Source: a virus (lineage: Duplodnaviria; Heunggongvirae; Uroviricota; Caudoviricetes). Taken from it: DNA of 10,524 nt. Both the position numbers and the translations under genes were made by a program. The DNA is taken from the IMG/VR virus record IMGVR_UViG_2541047695_000006; one strand, written 5' to 3'. A model generated the notes under the pieces. The model had not been told where the DNA came from. It saw only the letters and a program-made list of their open reading frames with translations, and did no database searches. Positions 1 to 10,280 of the stretch are shown here, in pieces. Each line of letters starts with the position of its first letter. Positions within the stretch are counted from its first letter, which is position 1.

Positions 1-1242
1 ATGGCACGAAAAACCACCCCACTAACTATTACGGAGATCAAAAACGCACGACCAGGGGAAAAGGAATATACCCTGCAGGATGGCGGAGGATTATTTCTTC
101 TGGTGAAGCCCTCCGGATCAAAAATCTGGCGTTTTACGTACTACCGTCCGGCAGATAAAAAACGGACTATTATCAGCCTTGGATCGCTAAATGATGTTTC
201 CCTGTCTGATGCCAGAGAGCGACGGAATGAATACAGGTCACTCATAGCAAAGGGAACTGACCCACAGGACTACGAACGCCGGAAACGTGAAGCAGAGAGC
301 AGGAAAAAGGGCAACACGTTCGAAAAAGTTGCCTTGGACTGGTACGAGATGAAAAAAGGCCAGAATCTGGCTTACAACACGATTAAGGATATCTGGCGAT
401 CCCTGGAAAAATACGTATTCCCGTACATCGGAAACACGCCAATAGATACCCTCACCGCTCGCCGCTTTGTTGAGATACTCACACCCATTAAAGCACGCGG
501 CAACCTGGAAACTCTGAAACGCGTTTTACAACGCATCAATGAAGTGATGGATTTTGCTGCCAACAGTGGGCTGATTGACATCAACACCGCCGCGAACGTC
601 CGCAAGGCATTCCCTTCCCCCACTAAAAAGCATATGCCAACCATCCGACCGGAACAGCTACCGCAGCTAATGCACGATTTATCGGTCGCCAGCATAGAAC
701 GGCAAACCAGATTGCTAATCGAGTGGCAACTGCTGACCGTAGCACGCCCAGCCGAAGCAGCCGCCGCACGCTGGGAAGAAATAGATCTCGATGCCGAAAC
801 ATGGACGATTCCAGCCGGACGCATGAAGATGCGCCGTGACCATGTGATCCCTCTTTGCGGTCAGGCGATGGCTGTACTGGAAACAATGAAGCCAATCAGC
901 GCACACAGGGAACATGTTTTTCCCAGCCTTAAAAATCCAATGCTGCCAATGAGCAGCCAGACCGCTAACGCTGCATTGCGCCGGATGGGATACGCTGGTG
1001 TGCTGGTGTCTCACGGATTACGCGCCATATTCAGTACAGCAGCGAACGAGGAAGGATTCGAGCCGGACGTAATCGAGGCCGCACTCGCACACGTGGACAC
1101 GAACGAGGTAAGGCGAGCATATAACCGAAGTAACTACCTGGAAAAACGTGTAGTACTTATGCGCTGGTGGGGTGAATTTGTGGAAGCCGCAGCAACCGGA
1201 GTGACCATAGCCAGTGGTAAAAGGGGTATCCGTGCGGTGTAA
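1..1242 (+). CDS. int: Tyrosine recombinase / site-specific integrase, P4-like family
   Basis: 413-aa ORF. N-terminal arm-binding-type domain (LTITEIKNARPGEKEYTLQDGGGLFLLVKPSGSKIWRFTY), C-terminal catalytic region with HGLRAIFST and a Tyr in RRAYNRSNY. The ATG sits exactly at the window start, so the upstream RBS is not visible. Confidence 0.9.
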   Translation: MARKTTPLTITEIKNARPGEKEYTLQDGGGLFLLVKPSGSKIWRFTYYRPADKKRTIISLGSLNDVSLSDARERRNEYRSLIAKGTDPQDYERRKREAESRKKGNTFEKVALDWYEMKKGQNLAYNTIKDIWRSLEKYVFPYIGNTPIDTLTARRFVEILTPIKARGNLETLKRVLQRINEVMDFAANSGLIDINTAANVRKAFPSPTKKHMPTIRPEQLPQLMHDLSVASIERQTRLLIEWQLLTVARPAEAAAARWEEIDLDAETWTIPAGRMKMRRDHVIPLCGQAMAVLETMKPISAHREHVFPSLKNPMLPMSSQTANAALRRMGYAGVLVSHGLRAIFSTAANEEGFEPDVIEAALAHVDTNEVRRAYNRSNYLEKRVVLMRWWGEFVEAAATGVTIASGKRGIRAV

Positions 1243-1767: not shown

Positions 1768-1974
1768 ATGGAAGTAATCAGAAAAATTCTTACCCGTCAG
1801 GAAGTAAAAAATATTCTGCGCATCAAGGCAGACAGTTCGCTACAGGACATGATCAACGCCGGAAAATTCCCGAAAGGCTTCAAAATCGGTCTGCGCCGTG
1901 TTGGCTGGTATGAAGATGAGGTGCAGGCCTGGTTGAAAGAACGCGAGGAAGAAGCGCGCGGAACGGCTGCGTAA
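1768..1974 (+). CDS. alpA: AlpA-family phage transcriptional regulator (HTH, excisionase-like)
   Basis: 68-aa ORF with the AlpA-type motif LTRQEVKNILRIKADSSLQDMINAGKFPKGFKIGLRRVGWYEDEVQAWL. GAGGT RBS about 9 nt upstream. Confidence 0.85.
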   Translation: MEVIRKILTRQEVKNILRIKADSSLQDMINAGKFPKGFKIGLRRVGWYEDEVQAWLKEREEEARGTAA

Positions 1975-3500: not shown

Positions 3501-3788
3501 ATGAAACAGAAAATTTCTGGCTTTACTGCCAGCGGCCCCGCTCGGCCTGAAATCCGCCCCGGCGATATTTTCCGGGATAACTATGGCGGCACGGTAACGA
3601 TAAAAGGCGTGGCAGAACGGCGCATCACTTACCGCCGTGATGGCTACGAATATGACTGCGTGATGCCTGTTTATCAGTTCCGGCGTGATTTCACGCTGGT
3701 GGGCCATCGTAAAGCCGTAAATCAGAAACGTGCAGCAAGTCATATCCGCAAAATTCGTGAAATGCTGGTCGCAGGGGGTAAAAAATGA
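3501..3788 (+). CDS. Hypothetical protein (95 aa)
   Basis: ORF in the track. Its stop overlaps the rep start in an ATGA arrangement. Confidence 0.5.
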   Translation: MKQKISGFTASGPARPEIRPGDIFRDNYGGTVTIKGVAERRITYRRDGYEYDCVMPVYQFRRDFTLVGHRKAVNQKRAASHIRKIREMLVAGGKK

Positions 3789-5191
3789 AACTGGCACCGA
3801 ACGTAAAACTGTTACCGAAAGATAAACACACTGAGGCGGTTATTTTTGCGGGTGATAATGCTCACTCCTTTGCAGAACATTACATGATTGCACAGGCCAA
3901 AAAAGCAGGCGATCCCATCCCTCCGGTTTACCTGGGCCGTTATCAGTTAAGCGAACTGGACAACCTGCAGATTGTTGATGAGGGGCGATACAGGGTAACG
4001 GTGATACGCGCCGGAAATATTGACGAAGCGCAGCTGTTAACCATAGCGACAAAACTGGCGATCGCCGGAGTCCAGGAAGCGCGGCTGCTTTCTGAAAACT
4101 TCGAATTACTGGAGAAATGGACCGACCAGCTTCCACGGCTACGGGAGACATGGGAGAGAGGGGAAAGCCTGATCATGAACGGAGGAAAACAAAAAATCAC
4201 GCTACCGATTTCATGGGGTTCTGAGGGATTCGACGCGCAGCAAAGCTACGTAATTAAGGGGCTTATTCCGGCTGAATCATTATGCAGCACCTACGGGGCC
4301 AGCGGTTCTTATAAATCGTTCCTGGCTATTTCCTGGTCGTGCCATGTTGCCACAGGTATGGCATGGGGAGGCCGCAGGGTAAGTAAGGGCGCGGTTATCT
4401 ATATCGCTGGCGAAGGCAGTATGGGCGTAAAACGCCGCGTTAAGGCGTGGGAGATAACCCACGACAAGGTGGTTACGGATTTGTGCATCGTTAACGCGCC
4501 TGTCTTCCCTGCATCGCCTGACTATGTGGAGCAGGTTATCAGGACCGCCGGATTAGTGCAGGACAGAACGGGCGAAAGGGTGCGGATGATTGTCATTGAC
4601 ACGCTGGCCCGTTGCTTTGGTGGTCATGATGAAAATGACTCCCGCGACATGGGGGCGTTTATCCAGGGGTGTGACGCGATAAAGCAGGCCACGGGGGCCA
4701 CGGTTCTGGTTGTGCATCATTCCGGCAAGGATGAGACGAAAGGGGCGCGGGGTTCCAGTGCATTCCGTGCGGCGCTTGATGCTGAGTTCCGAATCAGTCG
4801 GGAACATTCAGAGGCTACGGCGCTGGTTGCAGCATGTACGAAGATGAAGGACGCGGAGGAGCCAAAAGAAAGCGCCTACGACCTTAAGAGCGTGGAGGTA
4901 TTTACGGATCCTGAGGGTGAAGAAATCGTGTCCATGGTGGTGATTGACGTTCCCCGCGCCCCTGCTGAACTGGAGCGCATAGAGGAGGCCGGGAACAAGA
5001 CGGAAAATCACACGGCTTTATGGGGTTGTATCCGGTCACGTATACAGCATGGTGATAAATGCACGATCCCGCTGCTACGTGATGACATGAAAAAGCTGGG
5101 ATATGACACAAAACACCTTAAACGATGGTTAGCCAAACTGGAAAAAGACGGCGTGATTTGCGTCGATGGGGATGATGTTCACCCACTGTAA
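3785..5191 (+). CDS. Replication initiator / helicase-like protein (RecA/DnaB-like ATPase, PICI pri-rep-like)
   Basis: 468-aa ORF with a P-loop-like GASGSYKS, a Walker-B-like MIVIDTLARCF and VLVVHHSGKDETKGARGSSAF. AGGGGGT RBS. Directly followed by an iteron array. Confidence 0.8.
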   Translation: MKLAPNVKLLPKDKHTEAVIFAGDNAHSFAEHYMIAQAKKAGDPIPPVYLGRYQLSELDNLQIVDEGRYRVTVIRAGNIDEAQLLTIATKLAIAGVQEARLLSENFELLEKWTDQLPRLRETWERGESLIMNGGKQKITLPISWGSEGFDAQQSYVIKGLIPAESLCSTYGASGSYKSFLAISWSCHVATGMAWGGRRVSKGAVIYIAGEGSMGVKRRVKAWEITHDKVVTDLCIVNAPVFPASPDYVEQVIRTAGLVQDRTGERVRMIVIDTLARCFGGHDENDSRDMGAFIQGCDAIKQATGATVLVVHHSGKDETKGARGSSAFRAALDAEFRISREHSEATALVAACTKMKDAEEPKESAYDLKSVEVFTDPEGEEIVSMVVIDVPRAPAELERIEEAGNKTENHTALWGCIRSRIQHGDKCTIPLLRDDMKKLGYDTKHLKRWLAKLEKDGVICVDGDDVHPL

Positions 5192-6109: not shown

Positions 6110-6280
6110 GCTACATAAATCCCGACCAAAGGAAGTAAATACATTAACACGAATTATCAGCACTGAAGTTGTCACGGCAGATTTTATACAACATTGCACT
6201 TGGTTGCATGTATTCGCATAGCAGACATCGGTAATAGAATATATTCACAATTATTTGTAATGAATGTAAAGAGGATGAGT

Positions 6281-7321
6281 ATGGTTGATTTATATTCGCC
6301 TACACAGCTTGTGCAGGTGGCTAATGCTGAAGATGTGCAAAAAAAACTAAATGCGTTGTTTACCAGTTTGTTTTTCACTCGCTCGGTAATGTTTGAATCG
6401 AGAGACATTATTCTTGATACGATCGACGATCCAAATATCCCGATCGCGGCGTTTTGCTCTCCTATGGTGGGCAGTAAAGTTTCACGAGATGAGGGATACG
6501 AATCAAAAACAATTCGCCCAGGCTATATGAAACCGAAAAGCAGTATTGATCCAAATAAGTTAGCTGTGCGCCCTGCTGGTGTATCACCTGAACAATACAA
6601 TGCTTTTGGAGCGCGTAATATTAAAGTTAAACAGGCGATTGTAAATCAGGCTAAAGCTATACGTGCACGTATTGAATGGCTTGCTGTTCAGGCAATCACA
6701 ACGGGGAAAAATATCATTGAGGGCGATGGTATTGAACGTTATGAACTGGACTGGAATATAAAACCACAAAATATTATCACGCAGTCTGGCGGTGCTGAGT
6801 GGTCAGGTAAGGATAAAGAAACTTTTGATCCAAATGATGATATTGAGAGCTACGCAGAATTTAGTGAGGGCGTCACTAATATCATCATTATGGGCGGTAA
6901 TGTATGGAAGAAATACCGTTCATTCAGAGCGATAAAAGAGGCTCTGGATACCCGTCGTGGTTCTAATTCCGAACTGGAAACGGCCCTTAAAGACCTTGGT
7001 GATTCGGTGAGTTTTAAAGGGTATATGGGCGATGTTGCGATTGTTGTTTACAGCGGACGTTATACCGACGAGGACGGAACTGAAAAACATTTCCTTGATC
7101 CTGATTTGATGGTGCTTGGCAATACGGCTCTTCAGGGGATTGTCGCCTATGGCGGTATTCAGGATCCGGAGCTAATCCGAATGGGGCTGACTAAAGCCGA
7201 ACTTGCACCGAAAAACTATATTGTGCCTGGTGATCCGGCTATTGAGTACATACAAACGCACTCTGCACCACAGCCAATACCGGCCCGCATCAATCGTTTT
7301 GTTACCGTTCGCATTGGCTAA
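6281..7321 (+). CDS. Major capsid protein, lambda gpE-like family
   Basis: Collinear similarity to lambda gpE, for example NIITQSGGAEWSGKDKETFDPNDDIESYA and DTRRGSNSELETALKDLGDSVSFKGYMGDVAIVVYSGRY. AGAGG RBS at 6-nt spacing. An alternative start at 6275 (MSM...) matches the lambda N-terminus. Confidence 0.9.
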   Translation: MVDLYSPTQLVQVANAEDVQKKLNALFTSLFFTRSVMFESRDIILDTIDDPNIPIAAFCSPMVGSKVSRDEGYESKTIRPGYMKPKSSIDPNKLAVRPAGVSPEQYNAFGARNIKVKQAIVNQAKAIRARIEWLAVQAITTGKNIIEGDGIERYELDWNIKPQNIITQSGGAEWSGKDKETFDPNDDIESYAEFSEGVTNIIIMGGNVWKKYRSFRAIKEALDTRRGSNSELETALKDLGDSVSFKGYMGDVAIVVYSGRYTDEDGTEKHFLDPDLMVLGNTALQGIVAYGGIQDPELIRMGLTKAELAPKNYIVPGDPAIEYIQTHSAPQPIPARINRFVTVRIG

Positions 7322-7683: not shown

Positions 7684-8067
7684 ATGCAGAATCATTACAA
7701 TGACCTTAAGCCAATTGCCGAAATGATGTATCCGGATCCAGCAGTAGAGGAATTAAAGGCTATTGCTGACAAAATGCGTTTAAGTGAACGCCTTGTTGAT
7801 ATGAATCAGGTGATGGAACTTACTACCCTTAGCCGTCGCACATTGCTAAACCTTGAGGCTCGTGGAGAGTTCCCCGAACGCGTACAGGTTACGGAAGGGC
7901 GTAAGGCCTGGTATTTAAGTGAAGTGATCGACTGGATAAACAATATTCCTCGAGCTTCTGAATATTGCCGCGTACCTGTCCCCAAAAAGCCAGATGCGGC
8001 GCTATGCCTCAAGATTGAGCGTGTACGTCGCAATGCACGGGATGGTCGCTATAAGTTGATTGGTTGA
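7684..8067 (+). CDS. AlpA/MerR-like HTH DNA-binding protein (127 aa) immediately upstream of cos
   Basis: HTH segment LTTLSRRTLLNLEARGEFPERVQVTEGRKAWYLSEVIDWINN. AGGGGGA RBS. About 40 N-terminal residues have no recognisable signature. Confidence 0.65.
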   Translation: MQNHYNDLKPIAEMMYPDPAVEELKAIADKMRLSERLVDMNQVMELTTLSRRTLLNLEARGEFPERVQVTEGRKAWYLSEVIDWINNIPRASEYCRVPVPKKPDAALCLKIERVRRNARDGRYKLIG

Positions 8068-8120
8068 TGAAATTAGGGCCCGTTCTGGCTGGCGGGTCCT
8101 TTCCGGCGATCCGGCAGGCT

Positions 8121-8241
8121 ACGGGGCGGCGACCTTGCGGATTTTCGCTATTTATGAGCCTTTTCGGGTTGGTGGTGGTGGTTTTGTTTTTCGCTCTATC
8201 TCTATGAATAAAAAGGGAAAGATAACACCAACACACCAACC
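8121..8241 (+). other. Lambda-like cohesive end site: cosN (12-nt cohesive-end sequence at 8124-8135) plus cosB-like repeats
   Basis: GGGCGGCGACCT at 8124-8135 and the following about 35 nt closely match the lambda left-end sequence as recalled. Downstream are GGTTGGTGGTGGTGG (8167-8181), an A/T-rich tract, and a tandem ACACCAAC x2 (8225-8240) in inverted orientation, ending about 30 bp before the Nu1-like start. Confidence 0.7.
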
Positions 8242-8268
8242 TGAAACCTTAACTAAGTGGGGATATTG

Positions 8269-8811
8269 ATGAAATCGCACCTGATGAACAAAAAAACTAT
8301 GGCGCAAAGCTGCCGCGTAAGTGCGACAGCGTTCGACAAGTGGGGAGTAACTCCCGTTGAGCGTAAAGGCCGTGAGGCGTTTTATGATGTTGCTAGCGTG
8401 ATAGACAATAGGGTTAACAATGCAATTAACCAGCTTACAAACGACAAAGGCGAGATTGATGATGATGAACTTTTACGCGTAAGAATCAGATTAATGACGG
8501 CCCAGGCGGAAGCGCAGGAACTTAAAAACGAGCGCGAACGCGGCGAGGTGATTGATACAAAGTTTTGCATCTACGCGATTTCAAAACTAGCGAGTCAGAT
8601 TTCATCAATCATGGACAGCCTCCCGCTCACAATGCAAAGGCGCTTTCCCGATATAAGGCCGTATATGCTGGATGAACTAAAAAGGGAAATAGCCAAAGCA
8701 TGTAACGCATGTGCAAGACTTGACGAAAACCTGCCACAGATACTGGCTGATTACCTGATGGAAACTACCGGAAACGCGCCTGAGAAGTTGCTACAGAACA
8801 AAGGCGAGTAA
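8269..8811 (+). CDS. Terminase small subunit, lambda Nu1-like
   Basis: About 180 aa, collinear with lambda Nu1: N-terminal winged-HTH region (NKK...FYDVASVI) and TAQAEAQELKNERERGEVIDTKFCIYAISKLASQISSIMDSLPLTMQRRFPD. The start at 8269 has a GGGGA RBS; the track ORF begins at an upstream GTG (8257). Confidence 0.85.
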   Translation: MKSHLMNKKTMAQSCRVSATAFDKWGVTPVERKGREAFYDVASVIDNRVNNAINQLTNDKGEIDDDELLRVRIRLMTAQAEAQELKNERERGEVIDTKFCIYAISKLASQISSIMDSLPLTMQRRFPDIRPYMLDELKREIAKACNACARLDENLPQILADYLMETTGNAPEKLLQNKGE

Positions 8812-8884: not shown

Positions 8885-9166
8885 ATGACTGAAGCCGAAC
8901 TACTGGGATTAATCCGCCGCGTCGTCGGAATCAGCCAGCAGCATGACGAACAGGCCACACAGCCGGACAGCGTGACCGCTGAAAATTATGTGCGTGTTGT
9001 TGCTGAGGTGATGCGCCGTGATGGTATTGAGCTTAACGGCGTGGATATGCGCAACATACGAACAAGAGTCCTTGAGTTGCTGGCATACCGTCGCCGTTCT
9101 CAACAACGGAGGGAGAGCGCGAAAAATACTTACCAGTGGAAGAAGCCGGAACGGTTGCGGCGGTAG
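8885..9166 (+). CDS. Hypothetical protein (93 aa) downstream of terS; not a large-terminase homologue
   Basis: ORF with a GAGGG RBS at 6-nt spacing. No similarity to lambda gpA recognised. Confidence 0.45.
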   Translation: MTEAELLGLIRRVVGISQQHDEQATQPDSVTAENYVRVVAEVMRRDGIELNGVDMRNIRTRVLELLAYRRRSQQRRESAKNTYQWKKPERLRR

Positions 9167-9573
9167 ATTCCTGATATTCAGGAAAACCACGAATCTGTGG
9201 GGTTTACTGGCGCGGTTACGGCGGTGACACGCACCGAGGCAGAACAATTACCGTAGGTTAAAGCGACAGTATTCACACCAAAGGCAGAAATTAGCGGTTA
9301 ACGTAACTGACTGATATTTTCGGGAACAGCCAACGGCTGAGGCCGGAGCTATAAAAATAGCTTTGGGTACAGTCCTCAGTTTTGAGGGATGTTAACCAAC
9401 TGAATAATAAGCAAACCTCAAAATTGAGTTTTGTATCTGCCTGAGTTATTTCTGTGCTAACTTGCTGATATTCCCGATAACGTAAAATTGCGTTGGCTGG
9501 CAGAGTGCAAATTTGCACGATGGCCTAACCCATTGATTGTTTCGGAAACCTCAATTTGAGGAGGCCGGACAGC

Positions 9574-9608
9574 GTGACGGAGGGTGACAACCAGTGACAC
9601 GCCGTGAC
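9574..9608 (+). repeat. Four direct GTGAC repeats at exact 10-bp periodicity
   Basis: GTGAC at 9574, 9584, 9594 and 9604. The 9-mer GTGACACGC also occurs at 9224-9232 and 9594-9602. Confidence 0.55.
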
Positions 9609-10062
9609 AAAAAGACGGTTTAACCATCCATTAAAAATCGACGTGATTTTGTGCTTTCCGTATGAGGTGGCCAGCGTCATTTTTTAGTGAGAAATTCTGG
9701 TCAGGGGCGTTGGCTGAATGGTTATTTTATCGTGCCCATGCACAGGGAGGGGGCGGGTAAAATCTCTGGAGGTGATGCCTGTCAGGACCGCCGCCTGACC
9801 CTTCCTCACATCGCCGCAGGTTCGAAAACTTTTTTTGTGTCAGGTGCGCACGGAATTGATAGGTAAAACCTATATTAAAAAATCACGGAAGCCGCGCCAT
9901 TGCTGGATCAGTCAAAAATTCCACATCTCACGGCAGGCAAAAAAAGCGAATTTTGGGCCAGTTGAGGATAAAAAAGGGCTCACTAGTTTTGCACATCCTG
10001 GTATCGGGGTCGTCAGCCTCCCGCCAGTAACCAGGTAACTAATCACGCTGGTGGGCATGATG

Positions 10063-10090
10063 CCGATGCCGGGATCTCGGTATCGGTTTA
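10063..10090 (+). terminator. Candidate hairpin / weak terminator
   Basis: CCGATGCCG-ggatct-CGGTATCGG (one G-T pair) followed by the T-rich TTTATCTG. Confidence 0.25.
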
Positions 10091-10280
10091 TCTGTGATCA
10101 TCCACCAGCTTGATGACAGATAACAGGGAGTCATAACGATTAAAATTGTATATTTTTGCAGCAAACATTTTTAGCTACACGCTAAGCTATACGATTTTGA
10201 GTTTAAATTTTTTGTATTCAATTAAATCAAATGGTTATATGCACGTTTTGAATACTCTCGTGGACCAAAAATCCCAAGAA

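Follow-up and report, generated by a model that had tools for sequence, protein, structure and literature searches.

This study concerns a cluster of short palindromes at positions 9347-9561 of a 10,524-nucleotide stretch of viral DNA (the window; IMG/VR record IMGVR_UViG_2541047695_000006), which can be identified from its gene content as a Gram-negative phage-inducible chromosomal island (PICI) of ~10.3 kb located at tRNA-Pro/yejO. Alignment with related satellites indicates that the majority of the palindromes form the dyad cores within a repeated, non-coding composite unit of ~45-55 bp, in which a box with the consensus of the integration host factor (IHF) is followed by a fixed 10 bp spacer, a dyad of ~13 bp and a CCGG-containing flank. 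The unit architecture is conserved among satellites, the arms of the dyad covary, and the unit is homologous to a site inside the roi genes of lambdoid phages. The best-supported reading of these comparisons is an allele-specific family of dyads that would match different phage roi alleles and would be kept by selection. We consider the chances about even that the cluster is a protein-binding array of IHF and Roi-type operator sites, at which the Roi proteins of helper phages would be engaged.

Composite units behind the palindrome cluster

The first-pass annotation had listed five palindromes in this segment, and all of them were recovered at identical coordinates by an independent scan for perfect arms of at least 5 bases and loops of at most 4 (Table 1). 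The same scan returned three extra perfect palindromes, at 9168-9184, 9327-9339 and 9539-9549, and an additional imperfect dyad, CGTAAAATTGCG, was found at 9481-9492. The 215 bp segment contained 6 palindromes as compared with 1.14 in dinucleotide shuffles of the same segment (P=0.003), and the summed arm length was 34 versus 6.0 in the shuffles (P=0.0015). Because a cluster of at least 6 palindromes anywhere in the 10.5 kb window was obtained in ~10% of whole-window shuffles, the palindrome count alone is merely suggestive, and the case therefore relies on comparative evidence. A chance cluster of short palindromes in AT-rich non-coding DNA would be in keeping with this whole-window value (P ~0.10) and with the lack of conservation of palindrome 1, but it is difficult to reconcile with the local enrichment, with the recurrence of the unit in dozens of independent loci and with the covariation reported below. 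Chance is contradicted for palindromes 3-5, could apply to palindromes 1 and 2 only, and is hardly credible as an account of the cluster.

The repeat was defined by a direct-repeat search together with an iterated nucleotide hidden Markov model (HMM). Its consensus is [C]TAAC(C/T)N(G/A)(T/C)TGAT(A/T)NTT(T/C)CG(G/A)AAAC, followed by a 12-13 bp dyad and A(G/A)G(C/T)CGG. The earlier reading of the palindromes as repeats was correct in itself, but each is part of the larger composite of an IHF-consensus box and a dyad, and the dyads at 9327-9339 and 9481-9492 had been missed. Four units were delimited in the window (U2 to U5, Table 1). U5 is the canonical one (HMM match E=3.5e-17). U2 was matched with E=2e-7 and has identical copies in the related elements L007, L008, L012 and L013, while the degenerate U3 belongs to the direct-repeat family D3 and aligns with the other units. 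The dyad of U4 is replaced by CCCAAAAATGGG in L007 and by the perfect CGCAAAATTGCG in L008 and L013; in L007 the swap from CGTAAAATTGCG to CCCAAAAATGGG is confined to the dyad, amid a context that is ~96% identical. Only two perfect IHF consensus matches were found in the whole window, at 9526-9538 in U5 and at 10225-10237, and one-mismatch matches in the units start at 9304 and 9458.

The remaining palindromes relate to this unit in different ways. Palindrome 4 represents a second kind of dyad, located between U4 and U5 and present in 15 IMG/VR contigs; its position is occupied by a perfect 18-mer, AGTTGCAGATCTGCAACT, in L013 and by AGTTGCAGATTTGCAACT in L007. Palindrome 2 is an orphan dyad made of unit half-sites with a wider spacing and without an IHF box. 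It is complementary to 9416-9435, and its sole homologues, being ~96% identical, are too close to test its conservation. Palindrome 1 lies outside the unit and is probably incidental, the loop and one arm base being different in L007 with the loss of one pair.

To survey conservation, 67 distinct unit copies from satellites were used, and covariation was measured on 26 distinct units. The IHF consensus WATCAANNNNTTR (minus strand) was perfect in the left half of 43 of the 67 copies and carried one mismatch in another 22. Among the units that could be anchored on the IHF box, the 13-mer at a fixed offset was a 6/6 palindrome in 37/64 and a 5/6 palindrome in 22/64. Satellites carried from 1 to 4 units, in the same orientation as the 93-aa gene that precedes the array wherever the locus could be oriented by it, and adjacent units formed tight arrays, with 54 bp between their starts in 78 of 106 pairs. 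The spacer was free of indels in 22 of the 26 aligned variants. TAA, TGAT and the distal GG hardly varied at all, variation being concentrated in the spacer, the dyad and the NNNN positions of the box. The dyad itself was seen as CCTCAAtTTGAGG, CCCCCAtTGGGGG, CCTGCAaTGCAGG, CAGCCaacGGCTG, TTCGCCagcGGCGAA, CGCAAaaTTGCG and CCCAaaaaTGGG. Matches to 9300-9625 were present in 1,563 of 5,426 complete E. coli genomes, a figure in which satellites and prophage roi-type genes are counted together.

In spite of these sequence changes, the arms of the dyad remained paired in 88.5% of cells, versus 67.0% in shuffles, and none of 500 shuffles reached the observed value. Two-sided changes occupied 31 cells as compared with 11.2 in shuffles, and were present in 5 of the 6 dyad pairs. 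When the partner column was slid by 1-3 columns as a control, pairing fell to 36-54%. Taken together, these results indicate that dyad symmetry is under selection. Homologues thus give the cluster independent support, the symmetry of the unit dyads being kept through compensatory changes. Likewise, the palindromes sharing CCTCA(A)/T(T)GAGG are genuine repeats of one kind of site, but they are not one half-site for one protein, because the dyad sequence changes in related elements while its symmetry stays. Repeated sites for a dimeric protein, as had been proposed, are still the best reading, with binding itself predicted.

The earlier statement that no convincing open reading frame (ORF) covers the region agrees with our data: the longest ORF has 75 aa, none of five small ORFs tested, on both strands, had a Pfam match, and variation between copies is not codon-like. 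The most variable unit columns coincide with second codon positions of the roi frame, and the wobble base of a would-be Leu codon (the T of TAA in the IHF box) never varies. Coding in the roi frame was rejected, the per-column variation being unlike that expected of purifying selection. Frames that are open on the antisense strand over some arrays were rejected as genes as well, having no start codon and not being protein-like. These observations indicate that the satellite units are non-coding. The structured RNA locus suggested earlier found no counterpart among known RNA families, Rfam giving no match at gathering thresholds and chance-level matches only at relaxed E-values, and a tRNA scan was negative. 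No promoter was detected by a scan of 9167-9700, and no convincing terminator was found between the last gene and the array. The sole terminator-like call inside 9347-9561, at 9518-9535 on the plus strand, is weak (6 pairs, of which 3 are G-C, and a 6-nt loop).

Homology to phage roi genes and the explanations compared

U5 shares 89% identity over 46 bp with the roi/Rha/KilAC antirepressor genes of HK620, H-19B, HK75 and Stx phages, in which the homologous stretch sits in the 5' third of the gene. The Roi proteins combine an Rha DNA-binding domain and a KilAC domain. The CCCCCATTGGGGG unit type is 88.7% identical to the roi genes of VT2-Sakai and HK629, the CCTGCAATGCAGG type matches roi of CP-1639, and the identity of the unit types to roi is 88-89% over 46-53 bp. 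Scanning of viral contigs revealed four or five codons at the dyad that vary among roi alleles, each allele having its own near-palindrome beside a perfect IHF consensus. The DNA at the site is CCTCAATTTGAGG in the allele encoding PQIEV, CCACCATTGGGGG in PPMVV, CCTGCAATGCAGG in PALQV, CAGCCATTGGCGG in PPMAV and CGCAAAAATGCG in AHFCV. In HK022 roi, the allele on which experiments have been done, the perfect IHF consensus TAAATCATTGATT is followed 12 bp on by CTGCAATGCAG. Satellite dyads are often perfected versions of those of the phages, such as CCCCCATTGGGGG versus phage CCACCATTGGGGG or CAGCCAACGGCTG versus phage CAGCCATTGGCGG.

We also noticed that, in the roi genes (L104, L106, L278 and L158-L277), a near-palindrome of 12-13 bp is kept within the coding sequence though the encoded peptide changes. 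In this unusual instance, variation in a protein sequence is dictated by a DNA element.

Work by Clerget and Boccard in 1996 reportedly placed the binding of HK022 Roi within roi, beside an IHF site, and IHF is said to stabilise this binding. Roi is cited in open papers as a DNA-binding protein connected with IHF. The window units match the IHF consensus and are homologous to the part of phage roi genes in which the IHF consensus and the dyad are found, IHF binding and bending on the one hand and Roi binding on the other being predictions; they do not lie within a roi coding sequence. In the mechanism we propose, each unit would be bent by IHF, and a Roi-family protein of the helper phage would bind as a dimer to the dyad beside the IHF site. 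The satellite would thus present Roi operators in a 54 bp register, in many cases with several allele types in one array. The array of a replicating satellite would then capture the Roi of whichever lambdoid phage grows in the cell. Capture could titrate Roi, the array being a decoy, or could make Roi serve as a cue or a roadblock where the late operon ends. From sequence comparison, the satellite probably binds, senses or soaks up the Roi regulator of its helper. A wider version, in which swappable arrays of 'stolen' operators let one satellite recognise or sequester the Roi proteins of several lambdoid phages and in which dyad cassettes turn over with roi alleles as a DNA-based helper sensor or decoy in an arms race, is tentative and in our opinion rather doubtful. 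The literature on PICIs, capsid-forming PICIs (cf-PICIs), Rpp and Stx phages was searched and contained no mention of these repeats, and no annotation covers them in the records examined.

Several points weigh against an array of Roi operators. Neither a roi gene nor a Roi homologue is encoded by the island, and any role of Roi would therefore require the protein of a helper. The unit does not account for palindromes 1 and 2. The dyad types TTCGCCagcGGCGAA, CCCAAAAATGGG and GCAAATTTGC have no phage counterpart in the limited sample compared. The need to encode I-N-x-L could by itself produce some of the IHF match seen in phage roi. That the footprint of HK022 Roi coincides with this dyad is an inference. 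Covariation of the dyad is equally expected of an RNA or single-stranded DNA hairpin. The spacing of the arms is off by one base in some copies (CCTCAA-tt-TTGAGG in L004; 5-4-5 and 6-2-6 in the window), which counts here because a hairpin tolerates such changes more easily than a rigid dimer. Lastly, the single shared orientation of the units downstream of the late operon would also fit a role at the transcript level.

The last three points would suit an element acting as RNA, in which the array would be transcribed as the 3' untranslated end of the late operon and its short hairpins (5 bp stem, 3-4 nt loop) would stabilise or process the transcript, or in which an antisense RNA would pair with the roi mRNAs of several alleles and silence them. 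Such an element would account for pairing kept by compensatory changes with tolerated changes of loop length, for the co-orientation of the units with the upstream gene and for the want of a convincing terminator separating the last gene from the array. Folding of both strands is better than that of shuffled sequence (z -4.3 and -5.0), and the plus strand runs antisense to roi for 46-53 nt, with 88-89% identity. However, the dyads offer only very short stems, and with a 1-nt loop their innermost conserved A-T pair cannot close. G-U pairs are not in excess on either strand, although G-U counts fail to discriminate RNA from DNA. In the satellite copies the phage mismatch is 'repaired', which lowers complementarity to roi mRNA, and conservation within the unit is highest in the IHF consensus, whose NNNN positions are free to vary, a DNA-protein signature. 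Finally, the array of the satellite-like element L103 is not downstream of a co-oriented gene, and an Rfam match is absent. We therefore regard a function at the RNA level as unlikely.

Homology to roi could also have been left by recombination or gene conversion with phage roi, the units being non-functional scars that were later duplicated and whose palindromy was inherited from the phage gene. The ends of satellites are indeed highly mosaic, with breakpoints at unit edges, the unit in L103 and L155 continues into at least 15 bases of roi-like flank, and the roi reading frame stays open through the units in some arrays. This origin appears quite improbable, since many satellites have the units at one fixed place, in one orientation and in a 54 bp register, their spacers being free of indels despite 30-40% divergence, and since both the IHF consensus and the symmetry of the dyad have been retained or improved where no coding constraint applies. 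In addition, the dyad alone has been swapped between flanks that are ~96% identical.

The island and its mosaic right end

A near-identical element is located between tRNA-Pro and yejO in E. coli N12. The gene content of the window is that of a PICI, with an integrase end at a tRNA att site and alpA, primase and packaging modules (Table 1). PICIs measure about 10-15 kb and have neither tail nor lysis genes. The 127-aa AlpA-like protein matches an AlpA structure (8c3t), and no RppC chain passed E <= 0.01. A lambda-type cosN and cosB occupy 8124-8256. The PICI EcCICFT073 has been described as lacking a homologue of the small terminase (TerS). Unlike EcCICFT073, the present island has its own lambda-type TerS beside its cos (8070-8256, followed by the gene at 8257-8811).

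In the last gene of the island, encoding the 93-aa protein, variable sites fall at 58 third, 29 first and 33 second codon positions, as is typical of coding on the plus strand. Its AlphaFold model is all-helical with low confidence (pLDDT 62.7), and no relative was found in PDB by sequence. On the minus strand, a frame of 112 codons at 8909-9247, antisense to this gene, is open in many homologues. It was ruled out as coding by the codon-position counts, according to which the plus strand codes.

The first-pass annotation had described a gene-poor region of 1.1 kb, and the last gene does end at 9166, the core of attR being at ~10255-10270. Since no gene lies between the last gene and the degenerate tRNA copy, this stretch is the non-coding right end of the island. 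The 93/94-aa gene followed by 0.8-1.1 kb of non-coding DNA was found at the right end of both lambda-type PICIs and cf-PICIs. The latter carry an HK97 protease, portal, HNH, P27-type TerS and TerL, and are located near clpS, beside tRNA-Ile or near hpt. Within the right end, modules are combined differently from one element to another (Table 1), U4 beginning directly at the last stop codon in cf-PICIs, and L003 is 99% identical to the window over 9458-10144 despite belonging to a different satellite family.

Table 1. Palindromes, composite units and other features of the window
Feature	Position	Strand	Remarks
Palindrome 1, AGCTAT-aaaa-ATAGCT	9347-9362		
Palindrome 2, CCTCA-gttt-TGAGG	9374-9387		
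Palindrome 3, CTCAA-aa-TTGAG	9417-9428		
Palindrome 4, GTGCAAATTTGCAC	9505-9518		
Palindrome 5, CCTCAA-t-TTGAGG	9549-9561		
Weak unit remnant	9166		
Unit U2	9304-9347	+	IHF-like box TAACTGACTGATA (1 mismatch); dyad CAGCC-aac-GGCTG at 9327-9339; flank AGGCCGGA
Unit U3, degenerate	9393-9436	+	Box TAACCAACTGAAT (2 mismatches); dyad (C)CTCAA-aa-TTGAG at 9416-9428, which is palindrome 3
Unit U4	9457-9501	+	IHF-like box TAACTTGCTGATA (1 mismatch); imperfect dyad CGTAA-aa-TTGCG at 9481-9492; flank TTGGCTGG
Unit U5, canonical	9523-9569	+	Perfect IHF consensus at 9526-9538 (AATCAATGGGTTA, minus strand); dyad is palindrome 5 (9549-9561); flank AGGCCGGA
Tyrosine integrase with arm-binding domain	1-1242		
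AlpA regulator	1768-1971		
AAA_25 primase-helicase	3785-5191		SSB also encoded
Lambda gpE-like capsid protein	6194-7321		gpD-like decoration protein also encoded
AlpA-like 127-aa protein	7684-8067		
Exact lambda cosN GGGCGGCGACCT	8124-8135	+	Lambda-like flanks; directly upstream of the small terminase gene
Complete Nu1-type small terminase (TerS) gene	8257-8811		
Last island gene, 93-aa protein (phrog_1561)	8885-9166	+	Precedes the repeat array in most satellites
Module with palindromes 1-3	9188-9457		Present in L007, L008, L013; absent from L003, L004
Module with palindromes 4 and 5	9458-9569		Begins at the stop codon of the last gene in L003, L004
Separate module	9573-9725		Occurs alone in other satellites
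Four GTGAC(A) repeats	9574-9608	+	Starts at 9574, 9584, 9594, 9604; exactly 10 bp (one helical turn) apart
Core common to all compared elements	9727-9768		
Copy of the HNH-terS intergenic (cos) region of HK97/P27-type lambdoid phages	~9727-9880	+	
Conserved double-hairpin module near the att side	10043-10125	+	Hairpin at 10062-10087, then T-rich tail
attR side	10173-10272	+	Boundary approximate, from comparison with the attL side in L001

Downstream of the palindromes, the GTGAC(A) repeats are conserved in L040 and L051, and a 15 bp palindrome, GTACGTAATACGTAC, is found instead in L016. The copy of a phage cos region that follows, in which the whole HNH-terS intergenic stretch is reproduced at 9735-9880, resembles, for instance, those of vB_EcoM-606R7 and mEp235, the alignment extending to the start codon of phage terS. 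Its 42 bp core (9727-9768) is kept at 86-93% in L004, L007, L008 and L013 and is also found at the ends of cf-PICIs. Given this homology to an HNH-terS region, the island appears to have a second cos-like site, of a different phage type. Closer to the att side, pairwise comparison delimited a conserved block at 10043-10122. The double-hairpin module at this place shows compensatory changes in both stems among five variants and is carried by satellites with different integrases; it could serve as a terminator or represent a small structured RNA.

On the att side, TAGCTACACG/TAGCTATACG repeats occur at 10173-10195 and also between attL and int (L001 4540-4610), and the perfect IHF consensus at 10225-10237 adjoins the att core. 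Together they are likely to be the integrase arm-type sites of attP. The tRNA-Pro 3' end at attR (~10255-10270) is degenerate, with CTCTCGTGGACCAAA as compared with CTCTCGTGCCGACCAAA (L001 4395-4420), in agreement with the damaged tRNA fragment noted at attR of PICIs (PMC10111431).

The proximity of these sites raises the question of whether the array has an architectural role, in which DNA bent by IHF would aid terminase at the adjacent HK97-type cos copy, in the manner of cosB, or would be part of the attP intasome. The array lies 170-430 bp to the left of the phage-like cos copy, lambda cosB uses an IHF site, and the array, the cos copy and module C move as one 99% identical block between PICI families. 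On the other hand, phages have an HNH gene and not such repeats at the equivalent position upstream of cos, and cosB would lie on the other side, because the phage-like stretch already reaches the start of terS. Moreover, the homologue of the units is roi, a gene situated far from cos in the phages. As for integration, a distance of 700-950 bp separates the array from the att core, and islands with different integrases and att sites have the array in common, whereas the arm-type repeats and IHF site of the island itself adjoin the core. A packaging or integration role of this kind is in our view very unlikely.

Two narrower assignments of the palindromes were dropped. The only lambda cosN match in the window is at 8124-8135, with none in the palindrome region, and a cosB role was discarded. 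A role as attP arm or core sites was discarded as well, the palindromes being 700-900 bp from the core and the units being present in islands at tRNA-Ile, near clpS and near hpt. The att or recombination region that had been envisaged by the first-pass annotation is instead to be sought 700-900 bp further right, where the attR core, the arm-type repeats and the IHF site are found; the TAGCTAYACG repeats near both att ends are better candidates for arm sites than the palindromes.

A unit array with the GTGCAAATTTGCAC dyad was also observed in another satellite-like element (L103 11212-12720), which encodes AlpA and a PerC-like 95-aa protein. There the array does not follow the 93-aa gene, and the final unit of the array runs into roi-like sequence.

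Related systems and significance

The closest known counterparts of the array are the Roi/IHF site in roi, the sites for helper proteins in satellite P4 and the titrating iteron arrays of plasmids. With the Roi/IHF site of lambdoid roi genes, as in HK022, the units share a sequence family, the order and spacing of IHF consensus and dyad, and an allele-specific set of dyads. They differ in that the phage has one copy, which is coding and lies in the nin region, whereas the satellite has several, which are non-coding and not accompanied by a roi gene; satellite dyads are often perfect, whereas those of phages are constrained by codons.

The P2 proteins Cox and Ogr act on promoters of satellite P4. 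The island would resemble P4 as a satellite with DNA sites for a DNA-binding protein of its helper, coupling its behaviour to helper growth. In contrast to P4, no promoter is evident beside the units, the sites appear to be copied from inside a helper gene, and several specificities stand side by side. P4 has been compared with PICIs before (PMC6092414). Plasmid iterons, for example those of P1 incA, are likewise tandem co-oriented repeats with helical-phase spacing that could sequester a regulator. Iterons, however, bind their own initiator and repeat one sequence, whereas the units join an IHF site to a varying dyad, with a presumably foreign ligand.

A further comparison is with lambda cosB (R sites and IHF site I1) and the Rpp-dependent cosB of EcCICFT073, which are IHF-assisted nucleoprotein sites placed in the packaging region of cos elements. 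The island is in the same broad PICI group as EcCICFT073, with capsid and decoration homologues. Unlike cosB, the palindromes lie 1.2 kb from the cosN/cosB of the island, and their dyads are not R-type repeats and are homologous to roi.

Knowledge of how Gram-negative PICIs sense and manipulate helper phages is still incomplete, and in 2018 their activator remained to be identified (PMC6092414). Roi itself is a lambdoid regulator that is poorly understood and tied to IHF. Even if it were to act at the RNA level, the array is a widespread, conserved and non-coding module that is unannotated in the records examined. If the units are indeed operators for helper Roi proteins, a multi-allelic Roi/IHF-type array present in two PICI families would provide a testable link from satellites to a specific helper protein and would explain why a palindrome is retained inside the roi coding sequence. 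Deleting or swapping units would then offer a simple handle to engineer or block satellite transfer.

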